A stretch of DNA of 64,000 bases from Alphaproteobacteria bacterium (GTDB lineage Bacteria; Pseudomonadota; Alphaproteobacteria; SP197): assembly GCA_964291415.2 (NCBI GenBank), contig OZ219918.1:800001-864000 (forward strand), read 5' to 3'. Each line of letters opens with the position of its first letter. Position 1 is the first letter of the stretch. The position numbers were made by a program, and so were the translations under genes. Below are positions 54,131 through 63,561 of the stretch, piece by piece. The notes beneath the pieces were generated by a model. It worked only from the letters and a program-made list of their open reading frames with translations. It had not been told where the DNA came from and made no database searches.

Positions 54131-56005
54131 ATGGTGCTGTTCACCCCGGAATTCCTGGACGAGATCAGGGCGCGCATACTCCTGTCCGAGGTCATAGGAT
54201 CCAGCGTCCGTCTGGAGCGCCGTGGCAGCGAGTATGTCGGATTGTGTCCCTTCCATCAGGAAAAGTCCCCGTCCTTCACGGTCACGGATTCCAAGGGTTT
54301 CTATCATTGCTTCGGCTGCGGAGCGCACGGCGATGTCATCCGCTACGTGGTGGAAACCGAGAACCTCACGTTTCCCGAGGCAGTGGAGCGGCTTGCCGGA
54401 CGCGCCGGTCTCGCGATGCCCGAGCGCAGTCCGGAGCAGCGGGAGCGCTATCGCCGCGCCGCAACCCTCCACGATGTCCTGGAGGAGGCCAGCCGCTGGT
54501 TTGAGAGCCAGTTGGCCGGCAGCACCGGGAACCGGGCCCGCGCCTATCTTTCGGAACGCCGCGTCAGCGACGCCTCGCGCAAGCGGTTTCGTCTGGGATA
54601 CGCGCCGGACGAGCGCAATCGACTGATGCGTCATCTCGCCGGCAAGGGCATCTCGCGGGAACTGGTCATTGAGGCCGGTCTTGCCTACGTCGGCGACGGC
54701 GACCGCGAGCCGGTTGACCGCTTCCGTCACCGGTTGATCTTTCCCATCACCGACCGCAATGGCCGTGTCGCCGGATTTGGCGGCCGGGCCATGGGCCACC
54801 AGAGGGCCAAGTACCTCAATTCGCCGGAAACACCGGTCTTTCACAAGGGCCACCTGCTCTACGGCTTCACCGAAGCGCGCAAGCCGGCGCACGATGCCGG
54901 AACGGTCGTTGTCGTCGAGGGTTACATGGATGCCATCGCCCTCGTCCAGGCGGGAATTCAGCACGTCGTCGCTCCCCTCGGGACCGCGCTGACGGAGGGC
55001 CACCTCGCCCTGTTGTGGAAGCTGGCGGATGAACCCGTGCTGTGTTTCGACGGCGACACGGCGGGATACTCCGCTGCCTGCCGCGCCATGGAGAGGGCGT
55101 TGCCCGTTCTCAGGGCGGGCAAGTCCCTGCGTTTCGTGCTGCTTGCCGACGGCATGGATCCCGACGACATCGTCAGGGTGCGCGGCACCGCGTCCATGCG
55201 CGACCTGATCGACCGGGCGATTCCCCTGATGGACATGCTCTGGCAGAGCCGCACCCGGGGACGGGCACTGGAGACCCCCGAACGCCGCGCCGGACTGGAA
55301 AGGGAGTTGATGAGCGTGGTCGCATCGATCTCCGACAGGGCCGTCGGCCACTACTATCGCGGCGAGATCAGCCAGCGGCTGAAGGCCGCCTTCGGTCCGC
55401 CGCGATACAGGGGCGATCGTCTGCGGCCGGGAGAGCGCCGCCGACTCGACCGCCGGAGGAGGGAGTCATGGACATACCACCGCGGTGTGGAAATGGTCCC
55501 GGGCAGCGTTCCCGGTGGCGGTCCGGCGGGTGACGCCCGTCTCGCCGAAAGTGCGCTTGTCGCCATTCCCTTCCTCAATCCGGGTCTTCTCGAGAGGATT
55601 GCCGAGCCCCTCTCAGAGGTGTCCTTTCTCGATTCGCGCCACGAAAAGCTGCAACAGTGCCTCATCGGGGCCAGCGAGGTTGATGGAGACCTTGACAACC
55701 GGACGATATCTGACCACCTGACAGCGGCAGGTCTCGATGATCTGATGAAGGATGTGGTCCAGGCGGGAAGCCTCTCCGGCCTGGTCATGGAGTCGGTTGG
55801 CGAGGCGGAAGATCTGTGGCGCCACGTCCACGATCTTCACAGCTGCCGCAATGTCCTGGGTCAGGAGATTCGTGCCGAGGCTGACGCTTGGGAGAACGAT
55901 CCCACGGCGCAGGCCTGGCAGCGGCTGGTGGCCAAGATCGAGGAGAGAGAGGGCTGGCAGGACAGGGTTCTCGCCGATGATGATGACGTCGAGGAAACTG
56001 GATGA
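54131..56005 (+). CDS. dnaG: DNA primase
   Basis: CPFH...CFGC zinc finger, KYLNSPET, EGYMD, FDGD. Confidence 0.97.
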   Translation: MVLFTPEFLDEIRARILLSEVIGSSVRLERRGSEYVGLCPFHQEKSPSFTVTDSKGFYHCFGCGAHGDVIRYVVETENLTFPEAVERLAGRAGLAMPERSPEQRERYRRAATLHDVLEEASRWFESQLAGSTGNRARAYLSERRVSDASRKRFRLGYAPDERNRLMRHLAGKGISRELVIEAGLAYVGDGDREPVDRFRHRLIFPITDRNGRVAGFGGRAMGHQRAKYLNSPETPVFHKGHLLYGFTEARKPAHDAGTVVVVEGYMDAIALVQAGIQHVVAPLGTALTEGHLALLWKLADEPVLCFDGDTAGYSAACRAMERALPVLRAGKSLRFVLLADGMDPDDIVRVRGTASMRDLIDRAIPLMDMLWQSRTRGRALETPERRAGLERELMSVVASISDRAVGHYYRGEISQRLKAAFGPPRYRGDRLRPGERRRLDRRRRESWTYHRGVEMVPGSVPGGGPAGDARLAESALVAIPFLNPGLLERIAEPLSEVSFLDSRHEKLQQCLIGASEVDGDLDNRTISDHLTAAGLDDLMKDVVQAGSLSGLVMESVGEAEDLWRHVHDLHSCRNVLGQEIRAEADAWENDPTAQAWQRLVAKIEEREGWQDRVLADDDDVEETG

Positions 56006-56100
56006 TTCCCTGAAGACTTGTACATCGGCGTCATCCGGCCAGGGTGCCGGTTCGTGGTATACTGTGCCGTTTCGGATTCGCGGCTAAGGAGATTTCAGAC

Positions 56101-58014
<1,914 letters not shown>

Positions 58015-58025
58015 AGAGCGGCACC

Positions 58026-58102
58026 GGGCCCGTAGCTCAACTGGTCAGAGCCGGCCGCTCATAACGGTCTGGTTGCAGGTTCGAGTCCTGCCGGGCCCAC
58101 CA
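58026..58102 (+). tRNA. tRNA-Ile2 (anticodon CAT, lysidine type)
   Basis: Cloverleaf: GGGCCCG acceptor stem, anticodon loop CTCATAA, TTCGA T-loop, encoded CCA; sequence type and position after rpoD favour Ile2 over Met. Confidence 0.92.
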
Positions 58103-59513
58103 TCTTCCCCACGTCACGCCGATGTCCGGGAACCGCACCCCGAGCCAGCTGGGTGGTACACGCGGAAGCACGATGAACGTGGCGCAACACCCCTTGCCGT
58201 GGGAGTGCAACGAGAAGAACGGGATGTGGATGTCCTAGTCGAAGTGTCGACTCAGGAATCCTGCGATTTCGGTGAGGGACGCCTCGGCTTCCGGAATGCC
58301 TGGGTAGTACTCGAACACGTGCCACAGTCCTTCCCATACCCGCAACGTGGACTCGACACCGGACTCCCGCAGAACGCGATCCAGCCGCACACATCCGCTC
58401 AACATGAAATCGCGCGTGCCCGTGGTCAGCATGACGGGCGGAAAGCTGGCATCGAAAGGACCATTGATCGGCGAGAGTCCCGGGTCAGCCAGGTCAGCGC
58501 CGTCAGGAACAAGACAAGAATGAAAGAACTCCGCATCAGCGGCTCGCACAAAGGGATCCCGGTTTGCAAGGCCACTATCCCCAAAATCAGCCAGGTCCAC
58601 CGCAGGAGAAAGAAGGGCCAGCGCCCGGGGTTGAGGGCGATTGTCCGCCCGCAACCGATGTACAGCTGCGAGGGCCAGATTGCCACCGGCGGATTCGCCG
58701 CAAAGGCAGACACCGGGCGCATCCGCGAGGATCGATGCGATGACGTTGGTGCAAGCGTCAAGGGCGGCCGGGTACGGATACTCCGGAGCCAGAGGATACT
58801 CGGGAGCGATCACCCGTGCCCCCGTCTTCGCGGACAAACTTGCTGAGATCGGCAAATCTTCGAACGGACTGCCCAGCGCGAATCCACCGCCGAACAGATA
58901 CACGATCTGGCGATTCGAACGCCGCCGAGGCGGGTCAATCACCATGCACGCAACGTCCGAAATCACCCGTTCAGACAAGGTCACCCCGGTTTCCTTCACC
59001 GCAGCATTGCAGGCAGATTCGCAAGCCGCACGTGACGACTCGCGGATTTCGGAAACAGGCCTGCTCATGTCGCGGCCAGGTGTTTCTGCCGCTTGAGCTG
59101 CAAGCGCCCTGGCGGCCTCGCTGATCACGGCGACATTGTGCGGTTTCCTGGAACGTGGTTCCGTCATCCGGAGTTCTCCCCGCTATGCATCGCGATCCAG
59201 CAGCACGGACCCATTCAAGGTTTGTCACAGAGTGAGCGAATGTCCAGCACCGGAATGCCGGACCGACTCAATTCAATCCGGCGAAGCACACGTCGTCGAT
59301 CCTTGCACACAAGGAGGCGCCGGCCTCCCAGACCGTTGCGGAACAGGTGTTTCGAATGCAAACGCGCTTGGCGGGAGCCTTGTCGCGGCACGATCGCCCG
59401 CCCTTGTCAGGCGGGTCACAGGGGTGGTACATCTGCCCCGCTCGGTGCTGCAATAGGCCATTGAAATTGCGGGGTTCTTCAATTCGTCTTCGACGGTCCT
59501 GCCGGGCCCGCCA
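58103..59513. mobile_element. Integrase-less genomic islet integrated at tRNA-Ile2
   Basis: tRNA 3' end GTCCTGCCGGGCCCACCA (58085-58102) recurs as GTCCTGCCGGGCCCGCCA (59496-59513); GGGTGGTACA at both 58151 and 59422. Confidence 0.7.
58235..59167 (-). CDS. HSL-family alpha/beta hydrolase (esterase)
   Basis: FGGGF, GESAGG, WHVF. Confidence 0.9.
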   Translation of the reverse strand: MTEPRSRKPHNVAVISEAARALAAQAAETPGRDMSRPVSEIRESSRAACESACNAAVKETGVTLSERVISDVACMVIDPPRRRSNRQIVYLFGGGFALGSPFEDLPISASLSAKTGARVIAPEYPLAPEYPYPAALDACTNVIASILADAPGVCLCGESAGGNLALAAVHRLRADNRPQPRALALLSPAVDLADFGDSGLANRDPFVRAADAEFFHSCLVPDGADLADPGLSPINGPFDASFPPVMLTTGTRDFMLSGCVRLDRVLRESGVESTLRVWEGLWHVFEYYPGIPEAEASLTEIAGFLSRHFD

Positions 59514-59550
59514 GTCCACCCGTTCTTCCGGAGTTTCCCTCAACGCCATC

Positions 59551-60015
59551 ATGTCCGCCGACGAGGTCCGTGAACTTGCCGACATTGCCGCGCTCGAAGG
59601 CCTGGCAGCATATCTTGGCGACATCCTGGGACCGGGTGACGTCGTGCTGCTCGAGGGCCCTATCGGTGTCGGCAAGACCCGCCTCGTGAGCGCCTTCGTG
59701 GCGGCCCTTGGGTCGACCGATCAGGTGACAAGTCCGACCTACACACTGATGCATGTCTACGAAACGCCTCGCCTGCCGGTGCTGCATCTCGATGCCTATC
59801 GCCTGTCGGGGGTGCAGGAGTACCTCGACCTCGGTGCCGGGGACTTCGCCCACGACTCCATCACCATGGTGGAATGGGGTGACAGGATTGCCGACGCCCA
59901 CCCGGAACACCTCGGACTCGTTCTCGAGTTCGGTCAATCAGGCGATACGTCCCGTCGCTGCACCATCAGACGGCGTGGCCGGTCCTGGCCGCTGCCCGGC
60001 ACTCTCGCCCCGTGA
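59551..60015 (+). CDS. tsaE: t6A biosynthesis ATPase TsaE
   Basis: GPIGVGKT, VTSPTYTL, HLDAYRL, VEWG. Confidence 0.92.
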   Translation: MSADEVRELADIAALEGLAAYLGDILGPGDVVLLEGPIGVGKTRLVSAFVAALGSTDQVTSPTYTLMHVYETPRLPVLHLDAYRLSGVQEYLDLGAGDFAHDSITMVEWGDRIADAHPEHLGLVLEFGQSGDTSRRCTIRRRGRSWPLPGTLAP

Positions 60016-60653
60016 CCACGATTCTCTGCATCGAGACCGCGGCACCATCAATCATGGTGGCGTTCGGGGAGTCCGGCCAGGTCCTCTTCGAGGACAGGCC
60101 TGATGGCGGAAGGGTCGATGGACCCGTGTACCTTGCTGACGCGGTGCGCCGCGGTCTTGCCGGGACCGGTCTCCGCAAGGGCGACATTGGTGCCGTAGCC
60201 GTCGACCTCGGACCGGGGGGGCTCACCGCGACACGCGGTGGCGTGACCTTCGCCAACGCGCTGGCATGGGGGCTGGGGGCCCCCCTCATTCCACTTGACT
60301 ACTTCGATCTCGTCACGGCCGAGACACAGGCCACCTCCACGGTGGTCTGCATCAGGCCGACGACTGCTGGCCAGGGATTCTTCAGGGAAGGGGAGGGGCC
60401 GCTCATGGTCGATGATCTCGCCACGCTTTCCCGGCAATGCCGAGCCCGACCGGCGGACATTGTCCTGGCAGGCGTCGTCACGCCGGAGGTGACGGCACTC
60501 TTCCCGGGCAGCGGCATCGGCGCTGCAGAGGCCAGCGCCGCCACCATGGTGCGTTGCGCGGGCGAGGCCTTCGCCGCCGGGCAGCGCTCACTTGAACCCC
60601 TCGAGCCGCTGACCGCGGCCTCCCTTGCGGTCGGAGGCGATGACCGTGGTTGA
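60012..60653 (+). CDS. tsaB: TsaB-like protein, divergent
   Basis: ILCIET, IGAVAVDLGPGGLTATRGG (canonical GPGSFTGLRIG), context. Confidence 0.75.
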   Translation: MTTILCIETAAPSIMVAFGESGQVLFEDRPDGGRVDGPVYLADAVRRGLAGTGLRKGDIGAVAVDLGPGGLTATRGGVTFANALAWGLGAPLIPLDYFDLVTAETQATSTVVCIRPTTAGQGFFREGEGPLMVDDLATLSRQCRARPADIVLAGVVTPEVTALFPGSGIGAAEASAATMVRCAGEAFAAGQRSLEPLEPLTAASLAVGGDDRG

Positions 60654-61263
60654 CATCCTTGATGCTGGAGGGCGTGACACCGTGGAGAGGACACGCCGTG
60701 TCCTCGAAGCGGGCGGTGTTGTCGTCCTGCCGACGGATACGGTCTACGGTCTCGCCGTCAGTCCCGATCACGACGACGCCATCGATCGCCTGTTCGTTCT
60801 CAAGCAGCGTCCCCGGCAGAGAAACCTTCCGGTCATGGTGGACTCGCCCGGCAGCCTCGCTCCGTTGGGCGTCGCAATCGGCGAGGGAGCCCGCCGCCTG
60901 CTTGAATCGAACCTGATGCCGGGACCGCTGACAGTGGTCCTGGGATTCGGCCACGAGGGTCCCTGTTCGTGGCTGGAAGGACGCCATGAGGTGGCGGTCC
61001 GTATTCCTGCGGAGCCGTTCATGCTGAGTCTCCTCCAGGCCACGGGACCGTTGCTCGTTACCAGCGCCAATCTCCACGGTTTGCCGACGATGCAGACGGT
61101 GGCGGACATCCTCCTTCAGTTCACACGCGAACCGGCGCTGGCGGTTGACGGAGGGCCGCGCGAGAATGTGCCCTCCACCCTCGTCAACTGTGCCGTCGAC
61201 CCACCCGTCATCGAGCGCGAAGGCGTCGTCAGCCGTTCCAGGATCACGGAGATCCTGGAGTGA
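60640..61263 (+). CDS. tsaC: L-threonylcarbamoyladenylate synthase (YrdC domain only)
   Basis: PTDTVYGL, KQRP, PGPLT, VAVRIP, TSAN, PST. Confidence 0.9.
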   Translation: MTVVDILDAGGRDTVERTRRVLEAGGVVVLPTDTVYGLAVSPDHDDAIDRLFVLKQRPRQRNLPVMVDSPGSLAPLGVAIGEGARRLLESNLMPGPLTVVLGFGHEGPCSWLEGRHEVAVRIPAEPFMLSLLQATGPLLVTSANLHGLPTMQTVADILLQFTREPALAVDGGPRENVPSTLVNCAVDPPVIEREGVVSRSRITEILE

Positions 61264-62255
61264 GCGGAGACCTCATCCTGGGGATCGAATCCTCTTGCGA
61301 CGACACGGCCGTTGCCGTTGTCGACAGGGAGGGTCGGGTGCTGGCGTCCGGCGTGGCGCGCCAGGATGCCATCCACGCACCCTGGGGTGGTGTGTGGCCG
61401 GAACTTGCATCGCGCGCCCATGTGCGCGCCATCATTCCGGCCATTGACCAGGCGATGAGGGATGCACACGCATCGCCGGACCGGCTCGCCGCCATCGCCG
61501 TGACGCGCGGACCGGGCCTGATCGGTTCCCTCCTGGTGGGGCTCAACGCGGCGGCGGCACTCGCCATCGCCTGGGATGTTCCGGTGATCGGAGTCAACCA
61601 TCTCCGGGGCCACCTGCGCAGCGCCGATCTTGAGGGCGCCAGAGTGACGTTTCCGGCGACGATTCTGCTCGTTTCAGGGGGGCACACCTTTCTTGCCCAC
61701 ATGGCGGACCGCCGGAATGTGCGCGTTCTCGGGGCAACGCGCGATGATTCCGTTGGCGAGGCCTACGACAAGGTCGCCCGCCTCATGGGCATGGGGTTTC
61801 CGGGAGGGCCACTCATTGACCGCCTGGCGAAAGAGGGCCGACCCGTGATCGACCTGCCGCGGCCGATGATCCGCGAAGGCCTGGAGTTCTCCTTCTCGGG
61901 GCTGAAATCGGCCGTTGCCCGCACGCTCGAACGCTCACCTGCAACCGATCACGCGGACCTTGCCGCTTCCTTCGTCGACGTCGTCATCGACGTTCTCGTC
62001 ACCAAGTGCCGGCGTGCCCTCGACGCCGTTCCGGGCCGTTCCCTGGTGGTCGTCGGGGGGGTTGCCGCAAGCCCGCAGCTGCGCCACAGCATGGGCGAAC
62101 TTGCAGGCGATGCCGGAGTCGAGCTCTGTCTGCCGCCATTGAAGTGGTCGACGGACAATGGCGCCATGATCGCCCTGGCGGGCTGGGACTACCTTGATGC
62201 CGGAATCCGCCCGCTTCCCGCAGCCACGCCGCGCCTGCCGGTGACCGAGATGTAA
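61260..62255 (+). CDS. tsaD: tRNA threonylcarbamoyltransferase TsaD
   Basis: GIESSCDDT, GPGLIGSL, HLRGH, VSGGHT, GEAYDK, FSFSGLKS, TDNGAMIA. Confidence 0.92.
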   Translation: MSGDLILGIESSCDDTAVAVVDREGRVLASGVARQDAIHAPWGGVWPELASRAHVRAIIPAIDQAMRDAHASPDRLAAIAVTRGPGLIGSLLVGLNAAAALAIAWDVPVIGVNHLRGHLRSADLEGARVTFPATILLVSGGHTFLAHMADRRNVRVLGATRDDSVGEAYDKVARLMGMGFPGGPLIDRLAKEGRPVIDLPRPMIREGLEFSFSGLKSAVARTLERSPATDHADLAASFVDVVIDVLVTKCRRALDAVPGRSLVVVGGVAASPQLRHSMGELAGDAGVELCLPPLKWSTDNGAMIALAGWDYLDAGIRPLPAATPRLPVTEM

Positions 62256-62447
62256 CAGGTCGCCCGCCTCCGTGGGGTCATGTCCTCGCGGAATAGCCTT
62301 TTCCTGGAATGCGGGTTGACGACCGTTTCGGTCCTTCTCACCGGCCACCCGCATTCTGCGCCGCCACGCCAGGCGAGCCGCCCGGTTGGCGGACAAATTT
62401 CCGATGCACTACCATTCGAATCGAACCGGTCGACGGGGACGGGGTCA

Positions 62448-63290
62448 ATGGTCGCGCAAGTCAGGCGTCTGCCGGGCGATGCCGGTGTCGAGGACATCAT
62501 CGAGGCGGTGGACGCAGACGGCGTCGCAATCGTGAGGGATTTCGTTGCGGTGGAATGGCTCGAACGCTTCAACGCCGAGATCCAGCCCGCCGTCGACAAG
62601 GCGAGGCGATACGTCTTCGGCAACGAAGCGATCGACGAATTTCTGGGCGGTCGGACGGTTCGCCTGCACGGTCTGGTCGCCAAGGCGCCGAGCTTCGCCG
62701 AGCTCATGATCGACGCGCGATTGCTGGCCCTGATGGACCACTACCTGCTGCCGCACTGCTCCAGCTACCTCTTCAGCGCCGGCGAACTGATCGAGATCAG
62801 GGGAGGGGAGAACGCACAGCGCTTCCACATCGACGACGGCTCCTGGCCGGTCTGGCCACGGGTCGGCGCAAAGCTCCTGCAGATGAACATCATGCTCGCC
62901 GGCACGGATTTCACCGCAACGAACGGCGCAACGCTCGTCGTGCCCGGCAGCCACCTTTGGGAGGACGAGCGCGAGCCCGCCGCCGCCGAGATCGCGCAGG
63001 CGGCAATGCCGGCTGGCTCGGTCGCCGTCATTCGGGGCGACTGCACGCATGCCGGCGGCGCCAACACCGACGGCACCAGACGACGCGCCATCTCGTTCTC
63101 CTATTGCTTGGGGTGGCTGCGTCCCGTCGAAAACAGCTATCTCAACCTGCCGCTCGAGGTCGTGGCGCGCCTGCCCGTCCGTGTCCGCGAACTCCTGGGC
63201 TACGAGATCTACGACGGCTCCGGCCGGGAGAATTCCGGCTTCCTGGGCTACTACGAGATGGGAAGCCCGCGGGCCCTGTTCGAGACGTAG
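62448..63290 (+). CDS. Phytanoyl-CoA dioxygenase-family Fe(II)/2OG oxygenase
   Basis: QRFHIDD (HxD), NGATLVVPGSH, HAGGAN, GWLRPVEN. Confidence 0.9.
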   Translation: MVAQVRRLPGDAGVEDIIEAVDADGVAIVRDFVAVEWLERFNAEIQPAVDKARRYVFGNEAIDEFLGGRTVRLHGLVAKAPSFAELMIDARLLALMDHYLLPHCSSYLFSAGELIEIRGGENAQRFHIDDGSWPVWPRVGAKLLQMNIMLAGTDFTATNGATLVVPGSHLWEDEREPAAAEIAQAAMPAGSVAVIRGDCTHAGGANTDGTRRRAISFSYCLGWLRPVENSYLNLPLEVVARLPVRVRELLGYEIYDGSGRENSGFLGYYEMGSPRALFET

Positions 63291-63364
63291 GGCACTCCGG
63301 TTTTGCTCGCAAACCAGGAGCAGCGCGCAACAGGCGCATGAAACGAGGTTGGCGTTCATTGCTT

Positions 63365-63561
63365 TTGGTGCGCGAGAATGGAATCCCGGTCGAACTGCAG
63401 CCCGGTCGTCACGCCAACGACGAGATGTCTTCCTTCGACTTCCGCAATCCTTCGGGCTGGATGATCGAATACGGTTGGGGCGCCCGGCCCGCGACCCAAC
63501 AGTCCGAGAGGGGTGTTCCCGGGACATTCTCGATCATGCTCCCCAAGCAGCAAGCTTCTGA
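63365..63561 (+). pseudogene. Extradiol dioxygenase (VOC, BphC/HsaC-like) C-terminal remnant
   Basis: GRHANDEMSSFDFRNPSGWMIEYGWGAR with no N-terminal domain. Confidence 0.65.

Follow-up and report, generated by a model that had tools for sequence, protein, structure and literature searches.

N6-threonylcarbamoyladenosine (t6A) is among the few transfer RNA (tRNA) modifications that are present in all life and its bacterial enzymes have been studied as antibiotic targets; the tsa genes that encode them are usually treated as vertically inherited markers. The subject of this report is a block of four such genes, tsaE-tsaB-tsaC-tsaD (E-B-C-D in what follows), at 59551-62255 of a 64,000-nt stretch of an alphaproteobacterial genome (OZ219918.1, positions 800,001-864,000). 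This stretch is referred to as the window and all coordinates are window coordinates unless a locus or genome label precedes them. An earlier note on the same DNA proposed that the block was a second or repurposed threonylcarbamoylation system at a tRNA attachment site. That headline reading is wrong and the locus is the ordinary housekeeping t6A operon of its clade, but one which quite probably has an unusual history: it would be the sole t6A system of the organism, working by the known mechanism, the whole block having been acquired horizontally by an ancestor in which four scattered native genes were then lost.

The four genes lie on the forward strand and were identified in family scans of the window open reading frames (ORFs), to which the NCBIfam equivalog cut-offs and the Pfam cut-offs were applied. 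The ATPase subunit is encoded by tsaE (59551-60015; TIGR00150, 89.2 bits against a cut-off of 60.1; PF02367, 104.4 bits), the translation of which shows the P-loop GPIGVGKT, and the TsaD-like dimerisation subunit by tsaB (60012-60653; TIGR03725, 67.9 against 69.3; PF00814, 36.5 against 24.8). There follow tsaC (60640, or a TTG at 60625, to 61263; TIGR00057, 139.4 against 123.2; PF01300, 138.3), which is of the short single-domain form without a SUA5 domain, and the threonylcarbamoyl transferase gene tsaD (61260-62255; TIGR03723, 374.6 against 296.1), which ends in a TAA at 62253-62255 and was placed in an E-B-C-D-operon subfamily by alignment with E. coli TsaD, by trees and by signature residues. 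TsaE, TsaC and TsaD are thus over their NCBIfam equivalog cut-offs, and with NF007919, the model for E. coli-type TsaC, the window TsaC was below the cut-off (73.6 against 175). The junctions, as read from the sequence, consist of GTGA at 60012-60015 (tsaE/tsaB) and at 61260-61263 (tsaC/tsaD) and of a 14 bp overlap of tsaB and tsaC, between the ATG at 60640 and the tsaB stop at 60651-60653. The earlier note had described the layout accurately, down to these overlaps and to the lack of rimI or any other gene between the four, none being present in the ORF reading. The four genes would be translationally coupled in one operon.

The genome searched comprises 4.44 Mb in 5 contigs, with an estimated completeness of 100% and contamination of 8.99%. 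A whole-genome Pfam search with PF01300, PF02367 and PF00814 gave no further match over the cut-off outside the operon, and the genome holds one gene of the Sua5/YrdC family (COG0009), one TsaE over the cut-off, one TsaD and one TsaB, all of them in the operon. As there is no other tsa gene in the genome, the near-universal t6A function must come from this operon, which leaves no room for a second or back-up system. The four proteins look competent for t6A synthesis. The metal ligands of TsaD are kept, H114, H118 and D299 aligning with E. coli His111, His115 and Asp300, and the Ser136-Gly-Gly oxyanion loop, His139 and the threonine-pocket residues Ser9, Cys10 and Pro82-Gly83-Leu84 (E. coli numbering) are identical to those of E. 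coli TsaD; the roles of the metal, oxyanion-loop and threonine-pocket residues are set out in the accessible part of PMC7913687. In TsaC the K-x-R and S-x-N motifs line up with their counterparts in solved Sua5/YrdC proteins. According to the accessible part of PMC4615747, a K-R-S-N tetrad separates TsaC from its paralogue YciO, which lacks it, and with the residues of the tetrad read from the alignment made here the window protein is predicted to be a TsaC rather than a YciO. The retention of all these residues and motifs argues against the idea, also put forward in the earlier note, of a paralogous system for another substrate. In the proposed mechanism TsaC would make threonylcarbamoyl-AMP (TC-AMP) from threonine, bicarbonate and ATP, and TsaD would move the threonylcarbamoyl group to A37 of ANN-reading tRNAs, with TsaB holding TsaD and the ATPase TsaE resetting it. 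This mechanism is established for the families and, for the window set, is suggested by the conserved residues.

The block as a whole appears not to be of alphaproteobacterial descent. In an even draw of 250 other Alphaproteobacteria, 244 of which gave a TsaD match at E <=1e-30, a TsaD more than 52% identical to that of the window was found in only four genomes, namely G007 and G022, which belong to the same genus, G178 (59%) and G214 (55%), and the last two also carry E-B-C-D. The TsaDs of other Alphaproteobacteria were 39-52% identical among the matches listed. (G068 and G267 of this draw, and G278, G295 and G325 of the next, are unpublished and enter the tallies only, as ordinary-type rows.) A TsaD tree of 96 rows was obtained by quick search under LG+C20, with supports from the Shimodaira-Hasegawa-like approximate likelihood ratio test (SH-aLRT). 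The 59 operon-type TsaDs, without exception (59/59), formed one clade with a support of 100 and a stem of 1.23 changes per site, inside which the window genus is itself one clade (support 99). Ordinary Actinomycetota and ordinary Bacteroidota TsaDs each form their own groups, and the TsaDs of two sister lineages, G003 and G018, fall inside the ordinary alphaproteobacterial clade (support 100). In an approximately unbiased (AU) test on a 49-row subset, forcing the genus TsaD together with ordinary alphaproteobacterial TsaD cost 56.2 log-likelihood units (p-AU 0.0075). The scores of TsaC and TsaB point the same way, to an origin that would be foreign to the class: the window TsaC gave 113-219 bits with the operon TsaCs of other phyla as against 52-79 bits with the Sua5 proteins of relatives in the class, and the window TsaB gave 29-62 bits with operon TsaBs and barely matches the TsaB of family relatives. 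TsaE discriminates little, with 59-96 bits for ordinary relatives and 81-122 bits for operon TsaEs.

The operon-type TsaD has a signature of its own. A comparison of 59 operon-type with 37 ordinary TsaDs, in which a signature residue had to be at least 90% fixed in the operon type and present in no more than 10% of the ordinary type, yielded 17 columns. They include window position 164 (E. coli Ala161), which is Ser in 100% of the operon type and Ala in 100% of the ordinary type; position 271 (E. coli Asn272), Ser in 98% as against Asn in 97% (36/37); position 297 (E. coli Cys298), Ser in 97% as against Cys in 100%; position 239, Val as against Gln in 95%; and position 116 (E. coli Glu113), Arg as against Glu in 68%. 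According to the accessible part of PMC7913687, E. coli Asn272 is in contact with the adenine, at N1, of TC-AMP or ATP. The Ser of the window TsaD at this position is a trait of the subfamily and not a loss peculiar to the window gene, and in the E. coli complex the changed residues make no contact with the threonine moiety. The operon-type TsaD is read here as what would be a co-adapted variant of the same enzyme.

A one-genome-per-species scan with the window TsaD provided 80 loci, its best matches, 12 of which came from the window's own clade. Outside that clade the operon-type TsaDs were 55-68% identical and were spread across six phyla. The source groups were Actinomycetota (labelled sources including Phytohabitans, Actinoplanes, Catenuloplanes, Labedaea, Actinomycetospora and Actinomadura), Bacteroidota (including Lewinella, Saprospiraceae and Runella), Acidobacteriota (Pyrinomonadaceae), Chloroflexota (including an Anaerolineales metagenome-assembled genome, MAG), a cyanobacterial MAG and other Alphaproteobacteria (including MAGs). 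A compact E-B-C-D order was found in 64 of the 80 loci and E-B-gap-C-D in 5; 2 had E-B-D without C, 3 had C-D alone despite enough upstream DNA, and 6 were cut by a contig end. The two loci without tsaC, L087 and L124, are from Saprospiraceae MAGs, and the block is therefore not always complete. Even draws of 80 Actinomycetota and 80 Bacteroidota contained no TsaD above 51% and 52% identity, respectively, besides the carrier used as centre. The arrangement of ordinary loci is different. In 6/6 alphaproteobacterial loci tsaD stood alone within about 3.5 kb, it also stood alone in 10/10 from Bacteroidota, and ordinary actinobacterial loci, with a TsaD 42-51% identical, had tsaE-tsaB-gap-tsaD and no tsaC in 10/10; the gene in the gap is presumably rimI. 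The background on which the earlier note drew, namely dispersed tsa genes in Alphaproteobacteria and tsaE-tsaB-rimI-tsaD clusters with tsaC elsewhere in Gram-positive bacteria, is borne out by these counts, the rimI apart. In 9/10 carriers tested outside the genus the operon's TsaD/TsaB pair was the only one in the genome, the exception being Actinomadura scrupuli, TsaE was single copy in 5/5 carriers tested for it, and COG0009 paralogues occurred elsewhere in the genome in 5/5 carriers tested for these. The flanking genes differed in each of seven lineages compared (high-G+C actinobacterial flanks were left out of the comparison), among which no shared neighbour or mobile-element gene was common to the surroundings of the block, the one integrase being about 3 kb upstream in Runella only. 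A tRNA was present in the flanks examined of only 1/70 operon loci outside the genus.

Some individual carriers deserve mention. Actinomadura scrupuli (L176, G045:C1:278193-280218; L098) has an operon-type E-B-(gap)-C-D set and, besides it, a TsaB-TsaD pair of the ordinary kind, the TsaD of which groups with ordinary actinobacterial TsaD, and may represent a living stage of coexistence. In Phytohabitans flavus tsaC (L103:5068-5992, G041:C1:6411308-6411824) appears split over three frames, possibly as a frameshifted pseudogene or through sequencing errors. Full-length COG0009 paralogues occur at other sites in that genome, including one on the opposite strand a short way downstream. In many actinobacterial carriers the operon has directly beside it another ORF of the Sua5/YrdC family, more distantly related (42-86 bits to the window TsaC), which lies upstream of tsaE in, for example, L092, L104, L109 and L110 and downstream of tsaD in L095, L097, L111 and L118.

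Within the window genus the operon is widespread. A short TsaC (51-90% identical) is encoded directly beside TsaD (70-97%) in 19/22 same-genus genomes. The close loci have E-B-C-D in 12/12 and a tRNA with the anticodon CAT upstream in 8/12, while in the other 4/12 the upstream flank examined, 1.5-4.3 kb in length, contained no tRNA; a more distant set has E-B-C-D in 8/8, tRNA(CAT) upstream in 7/8 and dnaG-rpoD upstream in 5/8, the arrangement being kept down to relatives with an RpoD identity of 59-67%. The genus also includes non-carriers, at least by label. G003, G008 and G018, together with both other genera of the family, have a Sua5-type frame of 312-322 residues that is 33-38% identical, and the TsaD of these non-carriers is 47-51% identical to that of the window, although with the window TsaD as query a full TsaD was not found in G008. 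In the non-carriers TsaE, TsaD, TsaB and Sua5 are encoded at separate sites, which in G018 are at 1.49, 1.71, 2.75 and 3.61 Mb. The earlier note had named three findings that would tell against its proposal. Two of these were made, in that the operon holds the only tsa genes of the genome and close relatives share the order (19/22 for tsaC-tsaD, 12/12 and 8/8 for E-B-C-D), but the third, branching with vertically inherited orthologs, was not, the TsaD lying outside the ordinary alphaproteobacterial clade. A tree of the unlinked RpoB (ORFs chosen by phmmer, LG+G4) unites the carriers in a single clade (SH-aLRT 92) and leaves out G018+G008 and G023, which would fit a single gain. RpoB itself (G000:C4:1479026-1482241, outside the window; loci L201-L212) varies within the genus. 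It has about 1570-1577 residues in the window genome and its nearer relatives and 1374-1419 residues in G018, G008, G020, G007, G022, G017 and G023, and the family profile matches only from about residue 245 on, suggesting an insertion of about 200 residues in the N-terminal region that is common to one subgroup of the genus.

Most probably an ancestor took up, in a single horizontal event, a complete, self-sufficient block of a rare E-B-C-D type, which has its own TsaD subfamily and a patchy distribution over at least six phyla, and the four scattered native genes were lost afterwards, i.e. xenologous replacement. The place of the operon just downstream of dnaG-rpoD-tRNA(CAT) would date back to the ancestor shared by a clade of uncultured Alphaproteobacteria, and small insertions would later have entered the tRNA end, between the tRNA and tsaE, where an att-like repeat marks them. 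On the sequence comparisons made here xenologous replacement appears well supported, the tree being in conflict with taxonomy, the native type being present in sister lineages and native copies being absent. It was one of several options listed in the earlier note, and the TsaD identities, the operon-type clade and the AU test all favour it.

A number of considerations weigh against this history or restrict it. TsaB is 1.4 bits below its NCBIfam cut-off and its PF00814 match spans residues 41-106 only, its place between tsaE and tsaC being kept in 64/80 loci. The function of the whole set is ascribed by homology, and in TsaD both Asn272->Ser and the other substitutions, E113R, A161S and C298S, fall at near-invariant positions, so that an altered enzyme property is possible. 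A promoter/terminator consensus scan of 57900-63500 gave 0 sites of either kind, a result that says little in a genome of 64% G+C. The frequency of the type cannot be deduced from the 80 loci as they were chosen as best matches, and the taxon labels of the MAGs are the depositors' own. The TsaD trees come from quick searches, with SH-aLRT as the sole measure of support and without an outgroup, and the operon-type clade has a polytomy at its base, for which reason neither a donor nor a direction of transfer can be named. The AU test was made once the first tree was known, although the group constrained in it follows taxonomy. In addition, a tree of the linked DnaG and RpoD places G020 and G022, both carriers, together with G018 and G008, both non-carriers (99/99), and rejects monophyly of the carriers (p-AU 0.03), albeit with one outgroup and a long-branch warning, and on this account a history of one gain and then a single loss of the native set is less than certain; a tree of RpoD alone does not resolve the genus.

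The surroundings of the operon have a history of their own. Near the window end dnaG (54131-56005) is followed by rpoD (56044-58014) and by a forward-strand tRNA (58026-58102) that ARAGORN calls tRNA-Met(CAT). Of the three CAT tRNAs that the genome has, this one is probably tRNA-Ile2, as the earlier note had it; this identity is reasonable by elimination, the acceptor stem being as in tRNA-Ile(GAT) and the other two CAT tRNAs looking like elongator and initiator. The last 18 bases of the gene (58085-58102) form an integration core, and an att-like direct repeat of them, agreeing in 17/18 bases, occurs on the forward strand at 59496-59513. These were the only 2 matches in the window at no more than 2 mismatches, 0.02 being expected from shuffles. 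The repeat ends 37 bp before tsaE, which bears out the spacing given in the earlier note, but it is the right border of an esterase insert and not of the tsa operon. The insert, of about 1.4 kb (58103-59495, with no strand assigned), has as its sole gene a hormone-sensitive-lipase-type esterase on the reverse strand (58235-59167; PF07859, 146 bits), which is present in 7/12 close loci, and no integrase-sized ORF was found within it. In three relatives (L059, L064 and L080) the esterase insert is absent and the tRNA is 22-38 bp from tsaE, and the stretch from the repeat copy to tsaE in the window aligns with that from the tRNA end to tsaE in L059. It follows that the insert integrated at the tRNA 3' end, with duplication of 18 bases; by this alignment the operon, to the acquisition of which the repeat bears no relation, appears as the old right-hand flank of the insert. 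The tRNA end is a real integration hotspot, as is also seen in L061:511-4254, where a 3.7-kb insert at the same tRNA end is bounded by the same 18-base repeat pair, but it has no bearing on the mobility of the operon, and the mobility via the att site implied in the earlier note is not supported. Its description of a portable, complete cassette is apt for a self-contained four-gene unit on a deep evolutionary scale, though not by way of the tRNA. Within the L061 insert there is also a direct repeat of 46 bases (617-662 and 2930-2975, 78% identical), suggesting a nested second insertion. The G+C content of third codon positions (GC3) is 74-77% in the tsa genes, 77-80% in dnaG and rpoD and 64% in the esterase gene. 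On the other side, 25 bp downstream of tsaD and on the same strand, lies a gene for a PhyH-family Fe(II)/2-oxoglutarate dioxygenase (62280-63290; PF05721, 86.2 bits), a variable neighbour outside the conserved block that is found downstream in 5/12 close loci. An oxygenase gene directly after tsaD occurs in several unrelated carriers (window 62280-63290; L081:6914-7906; L089:6852-7895; L085:7022-7816), the enzymes being PhyH in the window, TauD in two alphaproteobacterial MAG lineages and of the fatty-acid-hydroxylase family in Runella, but this may be coincidence, given the 5/12 among close window relatives.

An important consideration is whether the same observations could be accounted for without any transfer, the E-B-C-D order being an ancient vertical arrangement, or an old paralogous set, that has survived differential loss in a few lineages. 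The operon-type rows do group largely by phylum, with 16/16 Actinomycetota in one clade (support 98) and the Acidobacteriota in another (support 100), the two sets of A. scrupuli make coexistence possible, and the nesting of non-carriers among carriers in the DnaG+RpoD tree fits long coexistence with differential loss in the genus. Such survival is nevertheless improbable for a type found in 4/250 Alphaproteobacteria, 0/80 other Actinomycetota and 0/80 other Bacteroidota, and with a between-phyla identity of 55-68% as against the 39-52% of ordinary TsaD. Alphaproteobacterial carriers, moreover, are scattered over three or more positions in the clade, one position being beside a Flavobacterium row, the flanks differ in each lineage, and in the sister lineages G003 and G018 the genes are of the ordinary alphaproteobacterial kind. 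Another possibility, that the operon-type set is a second, back-up or repurposed carbamoyl-transfer system for another amino acid, RNA or small molecule, could draw on the long stem (1.23), on fixed changes at positions 97-100% conserved in ordinary TsaD, Asn272->Ser included, on the dioxygenase gene that follows tsaD here and in two other alphaproteobacterial lineages, and on the acceptance of hydroxynorvaline by E. coli TsaBD in vitro reported in the accessible part of PMC7913687. It is most unlikely in a genome with no other tsa gene, the more so as 9/10 other carriers have no other TsaD/TsaB, all threonine-moiety and metal contacts of E. coli TsaD are kept and the dioxygenase is a neighbour in only 5/12 close loci.

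The remaining alternatives concern the locus itself. Were the operon carried by a recently integrated genomic island at the tRNA, one end of which was the att-like copy, the repeat pair ought to enclose it, but the order is tRNA, repeat, tsaE and the pair encloses the esterase insert only. The tRNA 3' end is truly an integration site, with inserts of 0, 1.4 and 3.7 kb in different relatives and the same 18-base repeat; yet the operon is present about 38 bp from the tRNA in relatives free of any insert, its arrangement is kept to 59-67% RpoD identity, its GC3 equals that of its neighbours and 1/70 outside loci have a tRNA in the flank, and a recent island is accordingly given very little credence. 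Still less can be given to an artefact of assembly or binning that brought in foreign DNA. The contamination estimate of 8.99% might raise that suspicion, but the operon shares a 1.3-Mb contig with dnaG and rpoD, and many independent assemblies, including several chromosomes in one contig, show the same arrangement.

A broader interpretation, to which about an even chance may be given, is that the operon type constitutes a distinct, self-sufficient t6A module with a remodelled TsaD nucleotide pocket (N272S, E113R, C298S), which has spread across at least six phyla and has repeatedly displaced the native scattered genes. On this interpretation the likely reason why only the whole set can be exchanged would be that TsaB, TsaD and TsaE need partners from close relatives in order to work. 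If true, it would clearly depart from the rule against the exchange of essential multi-subunit informational machinery, and it would help to explain the patchy distribution of TsaC versus Sua5, which has been termed enigmatic in reviews. Even for the window clade by itself, an essential four-protein system has seemingly been replaced wholesale by a foreign copy, the same block being the sole set in distant phyla. This urges caution in the use of TsaD or TsaC as phylogenetic markers, offers a natural test of which t6A subunits must co-evolve and draws attention to a TsaD subfamily with fixed changes in the shell of the active site.

Four-gene clusters of this kind have been noticed before. Oberto (2013; PMC3571937), using SyntTax, described complete ygjD-yeaZ-yjeE-rimN clusters in Verrucosispora maris and Microlunatus phosphovorus, with two or three rimN paralogues in them, and the accessible part of that paper regards such clusters as too rare to be seen by routine synteny analysis, as more conserved than their surroundings and as presumably spread by horizontal transfer. 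A description of the wider distribution, of a separate TsaD subfamily or of the displacement of native genes was not found in a literature search whose range excluded subscription journals and supplements. The accessible parts of PMC4615747 and PMC10484737 contain no such account of operon-type distribution or displacement, and the words operon, gene cluster, horizontal, lateral, synteny and genomic context are all absent from a 2022 review (PMC9654439).

Comparison with the known systems places the window operon as follows. The E. coli YeaZ/YrdC/YgjD/YjeE proteins and the TsaB2D2E2 complex of T. maritima belong to the same four families, the catalytic residues of which are kept here, and the best solved matches to the window TsaD are the TsaDs of E. 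coli and Salmonella (266-268 bits). Relative to E. coli TsaD, the window protein has the subfamily residues Ser272, Arg113, Ser298 and Ser161 (E. coli numbering). As regards the bacterial TsaB-TsaC-TsaD-TsaE system in general, the window genes form one overlapping operon, whereas ordinary alphaproteobacterial loci are scattered (6/6). The clusters of V. maris and M. phosphovorus share their four genes with the window, the likeness, as far as the accessible text of PMC3571937 goes, being one of gene content and not of TsaD subfamily; that text deals with two actinobacteria, with no phylogeny and no statement on loss of native genes, whereas the type is found here in six phyla and as the sole set. 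The Gram-positive tsaE-tsaB-rimI-tsaD operon, as seen in the alr-groEL1 region of M. tuberculosis (PMC5335608, accessible part), has the same order of E, B and D on one strand, but in the window the gap between tsaB and tsaD is filled by tsaC, a gene that is missing from 10/10 ordinary actinobacterial loci, the TsaDs of which belong to another clade.

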